Program-made: the position numbers and the translations under genes
Notes under the pieces: model-generated
The model's input: the letters and a program-made list of their open reading frames with translations, nothing else
Databases searched by the model: none
What the model was told of the DNA's origin: nothing
Source: an uncultured Verrucomicrobiae bacterium
Lineage (GTDB): Bacteria > Verrucomicrobiota > Verrucomicrobiia > Limisphaerales > Palsa-1400
Length of the DNA stretch: 64,000 bases
NCBI GenBank assembly: GCA_963702845.1
Contig: OY969763.1
Coordinates: forward strand, 1,312,001 to 1,376,000
Reading direction: 5' to 3'
Part shown: positions 17,984-44,981 of the stretch, one piece after another
Numbering within the stretch: position 1 is the stretch's first letter
Layout of the letters: every line of letters starts with the position of its first letter

Positions 17984-18172
17984 TTGTCCAGCGCCGCTGG
18001 ACAAGTGTCCAGAGCTTCTGGCTACTTGGCTGGAGCCGCTGGACGGTTGTCCAGGACGGCTGGCTTCTTGTCCAGAACGGCTGGACAATTGGCCAGAGCC
18101 GCCAGCCACTTGTCCAGCGCCTCTGGACTGTTGGCCAATGCCGCCAGACAGTTGTCCAGAACGGTCGGCTAA
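17984..18172. repeat. 21-bp tandem array A, 9 degenerate palindromic units
   Basis: Unit e.g. TTGTCCAGCGCCGCTGGACAA; exact 21-bp register with no indels. Confidence 0.93.
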
Positions 18173-18207
18173 CGATGATTTTTCCTTAACGGGAAAAGGT
18201 TTTCCGG

Positions 18208-18274
18208 ACCTAAACTATTTTCTGAACTGGGCCTTTCGCCCAATATCCTCAAAGCCATCGATAAGCTCGGCTTC
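18208..18274 (+). repeat. Diverged duplicate of the deaD 5' end (direct repeat of 23327-23393)
   Basis: 62/67 identical; encodes PKLFSELGLSPNILKAIDKLGF; no start codon. Confidence 0.92.
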
Positions 18275-18303
18275 AACAAGGTCCTAATTCAAGTGTCCCT
18301 GTG

Positions 18304-22418: not shown

Positions 22419-22754
22419 TTGTACAGCGCCGTCGTACACGTGTACAGCGGCGCTGTGCACTTGAACGGAGCCGCTGTGCACTTGAACGGAGCCGCTGTGC
22501 ACTTGAACGGAGCCGCTGTGCACTTGAACGGAGCCGCTGTACACTTGCACGGAGCCGCTGTACACTTGCACGGAGCCGCTGTACACTTGCACGGAGCCGC
22601 TGTACACTTGCACGGAGCCGCTGTACACTTGCACGACGGGACGGTAAAGTGGTACGGAGCCGCCGTCCAAATGGACGCCGCCGCTGTACGGGTGGACGGA
22701 GCGGCTGTACGGGTGGACGAAGGCGCGGTACACTTGCACGGCGGGATTGTTCAA
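22419..22754. repeat. 21-bp tandem array B, 16 units
   Basis: TTGAACGGAGCCGCTGTGCAC x3, one intermediate unit, TTGCACGGAGCCGCTGTACAC x4, degenerate flanking units. Confidence 0.97.
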
Positions 22755-23321: not shown

Positions 23322-25400
23322 ATGACACCTAAACTATTTTCAGAACTCGGCCTTTCACCCAATATCCTCAAGGCCATCGAGAAGCTCGGCTTCGAACAGG
23401 CCTCGCCCATTCAGGCCGAATCGATCCCGGTCTTGATGTCCGGACGCGATGTCGTCGGCCAATCCCAAACCGGCTCCGGCAAAACCGTCGCCTTCGCCGC
23501 GCCCGCCATCGAGAAGGTCGATGTCGCCGTGCGCGCCGTGCAGATTTTGATTCTTTGCCCGACGCGCGAGTTGGCGGTGCAGGTTTCTGAAGAGGTGCAT
23601 AAGCTGGCGTTTTTCACGCGCGGCATTCATGCGCTGCCCATTTACGGCGGGCAATCGTATGACCGGCAAATTTCGGGGTTGCGCCAGGGCGCGCAGATCG
23701 TCATCGGCACGCCGGGACGTGTCATGGACCACATGCGTCGCGGGACGTTGCGGCTGGATAAGGTGAAGATGGTGATCCTCGACGAGGTGGACATCATGTT
23801 GAACATGGGTTTCCGCGATGACATGGAAACGATTCTCAAAGAGACGCCCAAGGAACGGCAGACGGTGCTGTTCTCGGCGACGATTCCGCGCGCGATCCAG
23901 GATTTGATTTCCAAATACACGCGCGACCCTCAAAGGGTGGCCATCGAGCGCAAGGAGCTGACGGTGCCGACGGTGGAGCAGGTGTATTACGAAGTGGATC
24001 GCCGCTTCAAAATCGAACTACTGACGCGCTTGATCGATATTTATGATCTGAAGCTCGGGATTATTTTCTGCAACACGAAGCGCATGGTGGATGATCTGGT
24101 GGATCATTTGAACGCGCAGGGGTATTCGGCGGATCGTTTGCACGGTGACATGAACCAGCAGCAGCGCGATCGCGTGATGATGAAGTTTCGCAAGAGCGGT
24201 TTGGAATTTCTCGTCGCGACAGACATCGCGGCGCGCGGCATCGACGTGGATGACGTGCAGGTTGTTTTCAATTACGACCTGCCCTACGACGTGGAAGATT
24301 ATTTGCATCGCATTGGCCGAACCGGTCGCGCGGGCAAGAGTGGTCGCGCCATATCGTTTGTTGGCGGGCGTGAGTTGTTTCAAATCCAAAACATCGAACG
24401 CTTCACGAAAGTGCGCATTCACCGTTCGCAAGTCCCCACCGCTCAGGCAGTGGAAGAAGCGCGCGCGAATGTTTTCATCGAAGAGCTGCGCAATATTTTA
24501 AAGACCGGTGAGTTCAAGAAACAGGATCATTTGGTCGAGCGTTTGTTGGAAGAAGGGTTTACTTCGACGGATATTGCGTCGGCGTTGATCCATCAATTGC
24601 AAAACGGCGCCGGCGCACCCGCCAAACCCGCTCCGCAACCTGAAGAGCAACGGCCGCGCTACGACGATTCACGCGGACGTCGCGATGATGGCCCCCGTGG
24701 TTTTAGCGATCGGCGCGAGGAGCGTTTTGACCGACGTGATGAGCGTCCCATGCGCCGCGATGATCGTCCGCCGATGCGTCGTGACGACCGTCCAGCGCGA
24801 GATGAGCGTCCGGCACGATCAAATTTCGCTGGCGACCGTCAAGCCCCGGCAACGCGCAAGCCGTGGACTACCGGCGAACCGCGCCCTGTGCGAACACCAG
24901 CCCCAACAGCAAAACCACAAATCGCGCCAGTTTCTGAAACCGCGCCGGTTGAAAAGATCGAAAAGAAATCCACTCCAAAAGAACCGGCCGTTGCCAAAGC
25001 CCCCGTCGCCAAAGCTCAAGCTCCCGCAGCTGAAACCTCCGCTGCTGTCGAAGAAGCAACGCAACCGGCGCGTGTCGAAAAGCCAAGTCGGCCTGCAAAA
25101 TCTCGCGGCCCCTTCGCCGCACCATTCGGCGCTCCCCCGCCCAAGCCCGCGAGCCGTCGCACACCCGATGAACAAACCCGTCTCTTCATGAATGTTGGCG
25201 TGGAAATGGGAGTCGAAAAAGGCGATGTCGTAGGAGCAATTTTAGGTGAAACAGGATTGCCCGGCGCGACCGTAGGGACAGTGGACCTTCGCGAACGTCA
25301 TGTATTTGTCGACGTCGCGAAAGAGCACGCCAACGCCATTATTTCCAAGTTGAACCGCACGCAAATCAAAGGGCATAAACTTAAGGTGAAGGTCGCTTAG
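23322..25400 (+). CDS. deaD: DEAD-box RNA helicase (DeaD/CsdA type) with C-terminal DbpA RNA-binding domain
   Basis: Q motif, QTGSGKT, PTRELA, TPGR, DEVD, SAT, HRIGRTGRAG; DbpA-like C-terminus. Confidence 0.95.
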   Translation: MTPKLFSELGLSPNILKAIEKLGFEQASPIQAESIPVLMSGRDVVGQSQTGSGKTVAFAAPAIEKVDVAVRAVQILILCPTRELAVQVSEEVHKLAFFTRGIHALPIYGGQSYDRQISGLRQGAQIVIGTPGRVMDHMRRGTLRLDKVKMVILDEVDIMLNMGFRDDMETILKETPKERQTVLFSATIPRAIQDLISKYTRDPQRVAIERKELTVPTVEQVYYEVDRRFKIELLTRLIDIYDLKLGIIFCNTKRMVDDLVDHLNAQGYSADRLHGDMNQQQRDRVMMKFRKSGLEFLVATDIAARGIDVDDVQVVFNYDLPYDVEDYLHRIGRTGRAGKSGRAISFVGGRELFQIQNIERFTKVRIHRSQVPTAQAVEEARANVFIEELRNILKTGEFKKQDHLVERLLEEGFTSTDIASALIHQLQNGAGAPAKPAPQPEEQRPRYDDSRGRRDDGPRGFSDRREERFDRRDERPMRRDDRPPMRRDDRPARDERPARSNFAGDRQAPATRKPWTTGEPRPVRTPAPTAKPQIAPVSETAPVEKIEKKSTPKEPAVAKAPVAKAQAPAAETSAAVEEATQPARVEKPSRPAKSRGPFAAPFGAPPPKPASRRTPDEQTRLFMNVGVEMGVEKGDVVGAILGETGLPGATVGTVDLRERHVFVDVAKEHANAIISKLNRTQIKGHKLKVKVA

Positions 25401-41844: not shown

Positions 41845-43304
41845 CTACTCATTATGCGGAACTTTCACCGTGCCTCCTCCCACGAATTCGCGGATGACGG
41901 CGTCGCCTGGGATGATGTCGTAGCTGGTGACTTGGTCGCGCGTGAGGCCTTCGATGGAGTCGAGCAGCGTCTTTGACGCGTTTGTGGCGGATGTGGGCGT
42001 CGAGGAAGCCGGGGTAGGAATCCAACGCTTCGGCGGGCGGGAAGTATCCGCTCGGGCCGGAGAAAAATGGCTTGAGCGCGGGCAGGTCGAACGGGAAGCC
42101 GCCGTTGACGACGTGGTCGGCGGTGCCGTTGAGCGGGATGATGCTGAAGAGTTCGCCGGCGCGGACGTAATGCCAGTGCAACAAGGTGAGCAGGGGACTG
42201 TGATTGCGATGCTGCACGTCGCGCAACATGCGGCGGACGAGGCGCACGTCGGTAAACTTCGTCAACGCGCTTCGTGCTGCCGTCGCCTTCGTACATCGCG
42301 TTCTGCGTTTCGATGTAGAGCTTGAACTGCGCGCTCGCGTCGATGCCTTCGGTGATCGGCGGATACAAACCGTGCAAGCAATCGAGCAACAGGATCTGGT
42401 CCTTCTCGAGCTTCACCGGTTTGGTGGTGGTGCGGCGGCCTTCTTTGAAACTGTAAACCGGTTTCTCGATCGTCTCGCCGTTGAGCAACGCGACGAGGTG
42501 CTGGTTCAAGAGCTGGATGTCCAAGGCTTCGGGCGTTTCGTAATTGCGATCGTTGATCCAATCGGTCGGATGTTCCACGAGCGACCAAAAATAATCGTCG
42601 AGGTTCAACATCAGGAAACGCAGGCCTTGTTTCTGAAGACGTTCGGTGAGCTTGACGGTCGTGGTCGTCTTGCCGCTGGAACTCGGGCCGCTGACCCACA
42701 TCATGCGCAACTTGTCGCCTTTGTTGAGGCGGGCCATGACTTTGGCGGCGGCTTCGTCGAGGGACTTCTCGTAATTGCCGAGGGACTCTTCGACGAGCCC
42801 CTTGAGTTTGCCGCGTCGCACCACTTCGTTCAGGCCGGCGACGGTGTCGACGCCGCGGGCGCGATTCCACTCGAGCACCTTGCTCATGGCCGCGTCCGGG
42901 AAACCGTTGCCGACGAACGTTTCCTTCGTGACCGCGCCTTCGCGCAACCAATGGCGGCCCCAACGATAACAGGCGTAAGCATCGGCCGTGTTCTGGAAAC
43001 CGTAACTGCGCAGCACGTGCAGGACGGTGTCCTGGATCATCTCGATGGTCGGCGGGAAATTGGTGATGAGATGGTGCTCGTCGGAATTGAGGCCGACGAT
43101 GACGGCATCGGCGAGAAACCCGGCGAGGGCTTCATCGGAGTTCCACGTCGCGAAAAGTTTCTCGTTGATGCCGGTGAGGCAATCTTGTTGGAAGCCGCCG
43201 ATGGATTGGCCGGCGCGGAGGATGGCGCGGCGGATTTTGTCGGCATCGAATTTGACGAGCGCCCGATTGCGCTTTTGAACTTTGACAATGCGATTTTGAA
43301 CCAT
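41845..43304 (-). CDS. ATP-cone plus uridine-kinase-like (PRK/UK) fusion protein; frameshifts at ~42265 and ~41972
   Basis: VQKRNRALVKFDADKIRRAI...IEMIQDTV...AYACYR (ATP-cone); SGPSSSGKTT, LDDYF, YETPEALD, DVRLVRRMLRD (Udk-like); repaired end VIREFVGGGTVKVPHNE*. Confidence 0.85.
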
Positions 43305-43425: not shown

Positions 43426-43494
43426 GCACTAACGATCCAAAGGCGTCGATAAACTCAAGGGACAGTCGGTGTTGCCTGCGGGGCGGTGTTAGGC
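43426..43494 (-). mobile_element. Truncated attC-like site at the 3' end of the DUF805-like gene
   Basis: Minus strand GCCTAAC (RYYYAAC) ACCGCCCCGCAGGCAAC...; TTAGAC (TTRRRY) lies 10 nt before the gene's ATG. Confidence 0.5.
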
Positions 43495-43823
43495 TGCTTT
43501 TGAGCAGGACACAAAAGCAGGAACATCACGAGTAAAAGGTTGGCCAATGGAACTAAAAGCAAAAGAGCAACCCAACGATTCGTACCAGTCGAAGCGAGTC
43601 TGGGGATAATCGCGAAACGAACGAAGCAGACGACCAAAAAGAGAAATGCCACAAACCACAAGCCGAACAACAGAGTAAGCACAGGCAAATTCTCTTTGCC
43701 CCGGCCGGTGGAAAAATACAAAGCCCACCGAAAGGAAACCTGGAGAGCCATTGAAGCGATGACGCCAAGAATAAACCAGCCCAGAAAAGCTGCTCTACCA
43801 ATCGGCTTTGGAAATGTGCTCAT
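43455..43823 (-). CDS. DUF805-like small membrane protein
   Basis: PIGRAAF, RLASTGTNRW, LLLVPLANL; 3 TM; lower GC. Confidence 0.75.
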   Translation of the reverse strand: MSTFPKPIGRAAFLGWFILGVIASMALQVSFRWALYFSTGRGKENLPVLTLLFGLWFVAFLFLVVCFVRFAIIPRLASTGTNRWVALLLLVPLANLLLVMFLLLCPAQKQPNTAPQATPTVP

Positions 43824-43912
43824 ATTTCTGGTGGTCTAATAATTAATGTACGACAACTGTTCGCATGTTTTCGAAAGATGAACAAGGCTTTTTGCTGCGG
43901 GCACGGAATGGG

Positions 43913-44034
43913 AAAGCGGCAGGGGAGTCGAACGTCGGCCTCGCATGCAGCCGCAGTCCAAAAGCTTCGCCGGTTTCGGGGCGCGGTGGATTGTCGCGGC
44001 AGCGTCTTGGAGTGCGCCAGTCCTCTGGCGCTTT
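43913..44034. repeat. Inverted pair of REP-like palindromes
   Basis: Right copy GCGTCTTGGAGTGCGCCAGTCCTCTGGCGCTTT; left copy AAAGCGGCAG...GCCGCAGTCCAAAAGC is a diverged inverted version. Confidence 0.6.
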
Positions 44035-44081
44035 CCCATTGGCGGTTCAGCGGAGGGTTTATCTATGCGCCGGATAGCATC

Positions 44082-44270
44082 GGGCGCACGCCGGAGTGTT
44101 TACGGCGCACAGTTAGAGGCAGGCGGCGTGAGTCTTGGAAAAACAGGCGTGGGCCGGAAGCATTACGGCGTGCCACTTAATAAAATCGGCGTGCGTCTTT
44201 ACATATAAGGCGTGCGACTGAATTTATCAGTCGTGCACCGGAAATGTTCCGGCGTGCGGTTATTCGCTTC
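44082..44270 (+). repeat. 21-bp periodic array C: conserved GGCGTG/GGCGCA core plus variable remainder, 9 units
   Basis: Units start at 44082, 44103, 44124, 44145, 44166, 44187, 44208, 44229, 44250. Confidence 0.9.
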
Positions 44271-44360
44271 AGCCAGCACCGCGAAGCCTTCGTCGGCCCC
44301 AACCAACCAGTCAACTAAGTGGTTGACTGTCAAGCGCAGGTTGATATTTTGAGCGGCCTT

Positions 44361-44981
44361 ATGGCTAAATCGGACTTCATGCCCAAACAGGACGGCGCTA
44401 TCGCCACCTGGCACGATTGCTTCACCCACGGTTTGCCCGGCCTCGCCGCCAAATACGGCATCAGTGCGGGCGATGTTGCTACCGCTGTCACCCATAATTC
44501 TACCTACAAAACAAATTTGACCGATGCCAACGCCAAGGTCGCCGCGGCCCAGGCCTCCGTGTCCGAGAAGGACGCCAGTCGCGACACCGCCGTCTCGTTC
44601 GCGCGCGCGGTGGGTCGCCGCATCAAGGCGCATCCGGATTACGACCCCGCCGACGGCGCGTTGCTTGGCATCATCGGGCACGATCGCACGGTGGACTTGC
44701 GCACGCGCGCGCCGCACTTGCTCGGGCGCGACCACGGGCGCGGCCGGGTGGAGTTGCGGTTCAAGAAGTCTTCGGCCGATGGCATCAAGGTTTATTGCAA
44801 GCGCGGCGAGGAGACGACGTGGACGCATATTTCGACGAACACGCGCACAAAGTTTTTCGATGAACGCCCGTTGTTGGTGGCGGGCAAGCCGGAGCTGCGC
44901 CTTTATCGCGCGCATTATATTTTGCGCGACGCGGACATCGGCGAGTACAGCCAGGAATTGGAAATCACCTGCGCGCCGTGA
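44361..44981 (+). CDS. Hypothetical protein: N-terminal helical domain plus C-terminal FN3-like beta domain
   Basis: Ala-rich amphipathic helices, then VELRFKK..GIKVYCKR..W..FFDERP..LYRAHY..GEYS..ITCAP; no signal peptide. Confidence 0.8.
   Translation: MAKSDFMPKQDGAIATWHDCFTHGLPGLAAKYGISAGDVATAVTHNSTYKTNLTDANAKVAAAQASVSEKDASRDTAVSFARAVGRRIKAHPDYDPADGALLGIIGHDRTVDLRTRAPHLLGRDHGRGRVELRFKKSSADGIKVYCKRGEETTWTHISTNTRTKFFDERPLLVAGKPELRLYRAHYILRDADIGEYSQELEITCAP

Follow-up and report, generated by a model that had tools for sequence, protein, structure and literature searches.

The feature under study lies in a window of 64,000 nucleotides (the whole stretch of DNA that was analyzed) and consists of a tandem array of 21-bp units followed by an intact gene. 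The locus has the following features.

43455–43823, minus strand: DUF805 gene, starting just past the putative att-like repeat
43830–43900, no strand assigned: copy of a putative att-like repeat of the kind that bounds cassettes in this genome, ending 167 bp short of the array
43950–44035, no strand assigned: short REP-like repeat, dispersed in many related genomes and lying outside the module
44067–44276, no strand assigned: 21-bp array of 10 gap-free units, read from the sequence
44308–44329, no strand assigned: inverted repeat with perfect 8-bp arms and a 6-bp spacer, overlapping the putative −35 box
44323–44350, plus strand: weak sigma-70-like promoter match (9/12, with a TG extension)
44361–44981, plus strand: intact gene for a protein of 206 amino acids with no Pfam match and no signal peptide
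44391–44666, plus strand: N-terminal helical domain (helices at residues 11–28, 36–90 and 96–102)
44688–44978, plus strand: fibronectin type III (FN3) domain, residues 110–206, assigned by structure match

The REP-like repeat (query positions ~151–236) accounts for nearly all matches in other genomes. Between the array and the start codon, the promoter-like motif TTGACT-N16-TATTTT pointed out in an earlier note on this DNA is present at 44323–44350 but weak, with one such match found and 0.6 ± 0.9 expected in shuffled sequences. The inverted repeat that overlaps it is centered at 44318.5, a point that coincides exactly with one of the dyad axes between units when the array lattice is extended (12 × 21 bp from 44066.5); this is a post hoc observation. 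Farther from the array, an ATP-cone and uridine-kinase gene (41852–43304, minus strand) has an apparent frameshift near 42230 with its tail in another frame, possibly a read error.

The predicted structure of the linked protein (pLDDT 90) comprises three helices, one of them 55 residues long, followed by the FN3 domain; a single-sequence model of the N-terminal domain was poor (pLDDT 53). The FN3-like fold suspected from the sequence was confirmed for residues 110–206 (best match 3f7q_A, Z 11.6, rmsd 2.0, 88 residues aligned), and the absence of a signal peptide was upheld by the lack of a hydrophobic N-terminal stretch (best 9-residue hydropathy, 0.81); the protein has no membrane helix either. 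All six listed differences between the gene and sequencing run X5 fall on third codon positions. In the N-terminal helical domain the basic residues R82, R86/R87 and K89 are conserved, R82 and K89 being kept in at least 90% of 114 diverse family members. The protein has no recognized DNA-binding fold; neither it nor its family shows a Rep, winged-helix or ribbon-helix-helix fold, and the median net charge of the family is −3. PDB sequence searches with the protein returned nothing below E 0.01, and the Atlas returned unnamed clusters only, the nearest named cluster being 18% fn3. Pfam, NCBIfam, PHROGs and PADLOC gave no named family for the 114 members, only scattered weak matches. Among these the NCBIfam PQLLE family (NF052641) was rejected, as it scored 13.6 to 16.4 bits against a curated cutoff of 80; the match covered the long helix only, in three of four proteins scanned, and was weak in 7 of the 114 members. 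Weak searches found neither fused longer forms of the protein nor a stand-alone helical form.

The nine units that the earlier note placed at 44082 and every 21 bp thereafter, with zero indels, are seen in the sequence as quoted. In the register that starts at 44067, the unit is a decayed palindrome centered on base 11 with arms of 8 to 9 bp, and its best-kept part is the right arm, which is the core of about 6 nt that the note held to be the only conserved portion. The other 14 nt or so had been regarded as free, and this is not what we found. Columns 1 to 3, 5 and 14 are also identical in 7 to 8 of the 10 units, the pairwise identity of the supposed spacers is 0.381 versus 0.247 ± 0.017 in shuffles, and columns 2 to 6 complement the core at 35 of 50 positions versus 12.4 ± 2.9 in shuffles, a result with which the free-spacer reading fails. 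What varies between the units is a decayed version of the arm that complements the core. Decay is greatest in units 3, 4, 6, 7 and 10. The array scores 96, compared with 165 to 211 in four paralogous arrays; the studied array is more decayed than its paralogs and therefore resembles a core plus a spacer. Compensated hairpins in units 8 and 10 were considered and rejected (own-arm pairing, 49 versus 45.0 ± 2.9; p = 0.11).

The 6.03-Mb genome was scanned in full for clusters of phased motifs at periods of 15 to 45 bp. Period 21 accounted for eight clusters (one of them a simple 7-bp repeat), periods 42 and 20 for a single cluster each, and the other periods for none; because the clusters concentrate in this way, the 21-bp period is beyond chance. 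The genome holds 16 arrays of about seven consensus types. Five of the arrays precede intact genes, six precede stubs or broken genes, and five have no gene, one of these last being among the most symmetric. The proteins of the five intact paralogs are 34 to 87% identical, and the consensus types track the paralog subfamilies. An att-like repeat lies 96 to 314 bp upstream of 8 of the 16 arrays, always in the same orientation, which suggests local spread of arrays with cassette traffic; no integron integrase scored over the cutoff in the genome. Two further arrays lie on the minus strand of the window. At 17985–18170, a leader of the family type and its start codon are fused to the last ~25 codons of an FN3-type gene, the joined ends amounting to an internal deletion. 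Beside this array (~18205–18290) the 5′ end of a DEAD-box helicase-like gene, which itself starts near 23324, recurs as a short copy (matching 23327 onward). At 22420–22750, runs of identical units reflect recent tandem copying and are followed by a leader of the same family type and then apparently only the last few gene codons. Elsewhere in the genome, a gene-less array of 12 units (G000:C1:5103837-5104088) is of the studied array's consensus type, with units that lack positional correspondence, and tandem 10-bp repeats at G000:C1:2302595-2302700 lie beside an HTH-like gene and a terminase-like gene.

The protein belongs to a family of 3,971 clusters at 50% identity with a patchy distribution, being carried by 31 of 301 genomes of the class. 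Its carriers include cultured Methylomonas (loci L002–L004). With the single protein or patterns drawn from it as queries, tblastn included, no family match turned up in the plasmid, phage and viral collections. We examined the flanks of family genes in two sets. The first, made up of 137 fetched loci and 7 from the studied genome, was reduced to 113 loci once partial genes, short flanks and duplicates were dropped, and 47 of these (45 of them nonredundant) were scored as arrays. The second consisted of 74 loci from related genomes with enough flank, 65 of which have an upstream array, compared with 2 of 77 downstream controls. Array and gene are thus a family-wide pairing. What had been called an intact module is indeed an intact gene with an upstream array, and it is one of many such pairs. 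The 147 nearest flanking ORFs are miscellaneous; they include no recurrent partner besides the family gene and no integrase, reverse transcriptase, Cas, Rep or partition gene. Several loci show features of their own. At L171 and L228 a 21-bp array lies downstream of the gene, and in one lineage (L017, L034, L036 and L119) the family gene is succeeded by a gene for a peptidoglycan-binding CHAP-domain protein. Longer subfamilies (L175, L184, L221, L241 and others) have an in-frame N-terminal extension of 35 to 55 residues rich in tryptophan and proline, and some of these extended members have a second ribosome-binding site before a downstream start.

The consensus varies by locus yet is palindromic, with complementary majority bases in 263 of 414 column pairs and a palindrome score of 5.19 versus 2.72 for the median rotation (second set). 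Period, symmetry, size and position thus persist across Verrucomicrobiota and Gammaproteobacteria while the sequence turns over. The arrays also have a 42-bp super-period (lag-2 excess, 0.79 ± 0.12 nt), and unit matches outside the main block occur in phases 0, +1, −1 and −2 only, the −2 class coming largely from one lineage, and never at codon multiples. At the gammaproteobacterial loci L007, L009, L018, L041, L047, L049, L050 and L053, a gap, often AT-rich, interrupts the array, which continues beyond it with a phase offset of 2 bp. The distance from array to start codon is not phased to 10.5 bp (R 0.09), a search for a promoter position common to the family came up empty, and IHF-like sites, scored with a consensus sequence, are not enriched (55 of 82 versus 51.4).

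Comparison of relatives indicates how the arrays evolve. Close relatives share their units and also the order of these: of 12 pairs with a protein identity of at least 87%, 10 have a diagonal unit identity of 0.64 to 1.00 versus 0.41 to 0.70 off the diagonal, and the two exceptions have register mismatches. Several arrays consist of near-identical tandem unit copies, and arrays differ between proteins that are 83 to 84% identical. One orthologous pair has 11 units at identical coordinates, with 51% identity in the array and 54% in the linker, together with a 63-bp leader in which 59 of 63 positions are identical and a TTGACA that is conserved 85 bp upstream of the array; because of this element, some arrays are probably transcribed. 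Compensated consensus switches outnumbered one-sided switches 9 to 4 in hand-picked pairs, and the counts were 3 versus 7 in 14 stricter, independent pairs. No residue covaried with the array consensus among 21 sister pairs, a comparison of low power (best p = 0.77). A candidate claim that the array evolves faster than silent sites was discarded, as it is confounded by register errors and GC bias.

Our results show that the array is real, conserved, noncoding and vertically inherited. We infer that it reads as DNA rather than RNA, namely as duplex sites lined up for a symmetric dimer, because its consensus is symmetric without covariation within units (3,622 pairs versus 3,630 ± 26 in the second set; per-position z of −1.1 to 1.4 in the first), because the two strands fold alike relative to column-permuted arrays (−0.88 and −0.95), and because its period is two helical turns. 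Absent covariation and strand-alike folding are what is expected of duplex sites, not of hairpins, and the four-turn super-period and the intolerance of larger phase shifts speak for the same reading. The selection on spacing proposed in the earlier note, and its alternative of phased binding sites, are in keeping with the evidence; its mini repeat-spacer guide array is not.

The explanation that we favor, if tentatively, is a platform of double-stranded DNA on which sites for protein dimers follow one another every two turns and which the linked protein probably reads. The array would act as duplex DNA with about 10 pseudo-palindromic 21-bp sites, one per two helical turns, on which two-fold symmetric protein dimers would bind side by side along one helix face and form a cooperative nucleoprotein tract beside the gene's promoter. 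The linked protein is the likeliest reader because its gene is the sole constant partner of the arrays and because array types track paralog subfamilies. Its long helix would dimerize, its conserved basic residues may touch DNA, and its FN3 domain could link dimers or recruit a partner; the simplest output would be control of the gene's own expression. Several observations run counter to this explanation, namely the lack of a DNA-binding fold, the net charge of −3, the lack of a covarying residue, the difference between arrays at 83 to 84% protein identity, and the existence of intact gene-less arrays. In addition, the evidence from consensus switches is mixed, the start codon is not in helical phase with the array, the promoter position is not consistent, the orthologous pair has its TTGACA ahead of the array, and the dyad register falls in the gene frame in 61 of 107 arrays, which the model leaves unexplained. 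We also speculate, with more doubt, on a paralog-specific protein-DNA code in which family members would polymerize on their own 21-bp palindrome lattices, with a specificity that is rewritten faster than the protein diverges, and in which the cell would keep several orthogonal lattices along with gene-less decoy or anchor copies.

The same DNA platform may have another reader, a regulator encoded elsewhere or a nucleoid protein that recognizes the shape or spacing of the array, while the product of the controlled gene does something else. We regard this as unlikely. It would accommodate the well-kept gene-less arrays and a linked protein with neither a DNA-binding fold nor a covarying residue, and regulators of the TetR, MerR and HTH_20 types do flank some loci, but none of them recurs across lineages and no regulator gene is seen beside the studied locus. 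In the first set the consensus types have a pooled purine/pyrimidine pattern in common, which would suit such a reader, but this pattern is far fainter in the second set, and with about seven consensus types in one genome that track the paralogs, one host factor is not an easy explanation.

Quite unlikely, in our view, is a transcribed leader RNA whose interchangeable hairpins or long duplex would be coated by the protein for translational feedback or ribonucleoprotein assembly. The plus strand of the studied array folds better than dinucleotide shuffles (z −3.6; minus strand, −2.5), with 6 to 7 stem pairs possible in units 1, 2, 5, 8 and 9, but this advantage disappears against column-permuted versions of the array (z −0.25), and the arms do not covary at unit offsets of −3 to +3. 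A slight excess of G-T over A-C in the second set (666 versus 596) does not recur in the first, where the two are equal (497 versus 479). As for transcription, the orthologous pair has its promoter-like −35 upstream of the array, and one 167-nt metatranscriptome contig, which may be DNA, covers 43993–44112, the contigs from sequencing runs reaching into the array over its first two units only; the sole promoter match at the studied locus, however, lies downstream of the array, and there is no Rfam match.

Since 21 nt equals seven codons, the array might encode, or might once have encoded, a heptad-repeat leader peptide or N-terminal extension, which we consider very unlikely. At the studied locus, the TAA at 44206–44208 does end the Gly-Val frame (ORF 43945–44208), as had been noted, and the nine scored units have stops in all six frames, so that no open frame crosses them on either strand; this speaks against the translated heptad ORF that the earlier note allowed for. 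Across the family, the dyad frame coincides with that of the gene in 25 of 46 arrays and in another 36 of 61, and the array forms an extension of a few proteins in the database (P0125 and P0131). In the first set, frame +1 has 47 stops where 67 are expected, and in its verrucomicrobial part, taken post hoc, the dyad/gene frame is open in 19 of 22 arrays versus 11 of 22 for the mirror frame. The second set does not replicate this. Its six frames are about equally open (26 to 35 of 61), the gene frame is open in 28 and the mirror in 32, and the plus-strand open frame from the post hoc subset gives 33 versus 28 of 61. Moreover, the linker shows no stop depletion, neither set has an excess of third-position variability, and the phase breaks are of 1 to 2 bp.

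Equally improbable is a selectively neutral minisatellite carried by a mobile or often-duplicated gene. Identical units recently copied in tandem, the many orphans and stubs, and the orthologous pair whose array has diverged as much as its linker would all suit such an origin, but the same pair has kept its 11 units in place despite 49% divergence, the architecture has persisted across Verrucomicrobiota and Gammaproteobacteria despite sequence turnover, and no other period in the genome behaves likewise.

The remaining reading, a miniature guide array of repeats and spacers from which 21-nt guides for the protein would be cut, has in its favor the strict unit length, the adjoining single protein family and the existence of short-period guide arrays (TIGR and VIPR), but it is rejected, as the variable parts complement the core and so are not free, units are positionally inherited without polarity (arrays decay at both ends) and in some arrays are identical, and no Nop, Cas or nuclease domain lies in or beside the gene. 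Nor did the comparison with phage and host sequences that the earlier note suggested yield targets: the variable segments match the host genome no better than shuffles do (mean best, 13.1 versus 12.7 of 14), and the 2 of 10 units scanned against viral contigs had 0 and 1 exact matches; a single viral 18-nt match (L191) is taken as chance on a rough estimate.

CRISPR arrays likewise combine a constant period with conserved and variable parts, but the studied array lacks unique 25- to 40-nt spacers, polarity and, in the host genome and for the two units scanned against viral contigs, targets; there are no cas genes nearby and no Rfam repeat match, only single weak PADLOC matches. In parC/ParR arrays and in plasmid iterons, whose Rep is autoregulated, sites recur at about two helical turns just ahead of the gene that encodes their binder; the studied array resembles them in its spacing and, should the linked protein be the reader, in its position. 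Iterons, however, are nonpalindromic and mark an origin. TIGR-Tas systems also pair a compact array of 5 to 15 short units with one small adjacent protein gene, and they have 36-nt units with two alternating repeats, free 9-nt spacers and box C/D motifs and a Nop-domain protein (PMC12045711). The units here are instead self-complementary and 21 bp long, their variable parts are not free, and the protein is modeled as helices plus FN3, with no Nop family among the 114 members in Pfam. In the F plasmid, sopC likewise consists of tandem direct repeats beside a gene, whose product, SopB, binds them; its 12 repeats of 43 bp each contain a 16-bp inverted repeat and form a nucleoprotein complex with SopB (PMC3177203). 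The studied array differs in its period of 21 bp, its chromosomal and multicopy occurrence, a consensus that varies between paralogs, a helical and FN3 protein, and the absence of a nearby ParA/ParB-type gene and of a plasmid match. The array works most like sopC/SopB or iterons, yet it lacks their characteristic genes and replicons: the family has tandem, helically phased sites beside a gene, but no partition NTPase or Rep gene among the 147 nearest flanking ORFs and no replicon match in plasmids, phages or viral contigs.

This class of array is apparently undescribed. The papers searched contain no description of it, and the main text of two 2026 preprints on intergenic mining has no mention of fibronectin, fn3, 21-nt or 21 bp; one of the two excluded certain periods divisible by 3. 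A family of 3,971 clusters without a Pfam or NCBIfam name stands beside strictly phased palindrome arrays in most of the members examined. If the protein reads its own array, it would represent an unrecognized DNA-binding architecture and provide a natural set of orthogonal protein-site pairs. The five intact paralogs and about seven array types in one genome make cognate versus noncognate binding directly testable, and a paralog-specific code, if true, would define both a new class of DNA-binding proteins in bacteria and a novel type of dispersed nucleoprotein element.
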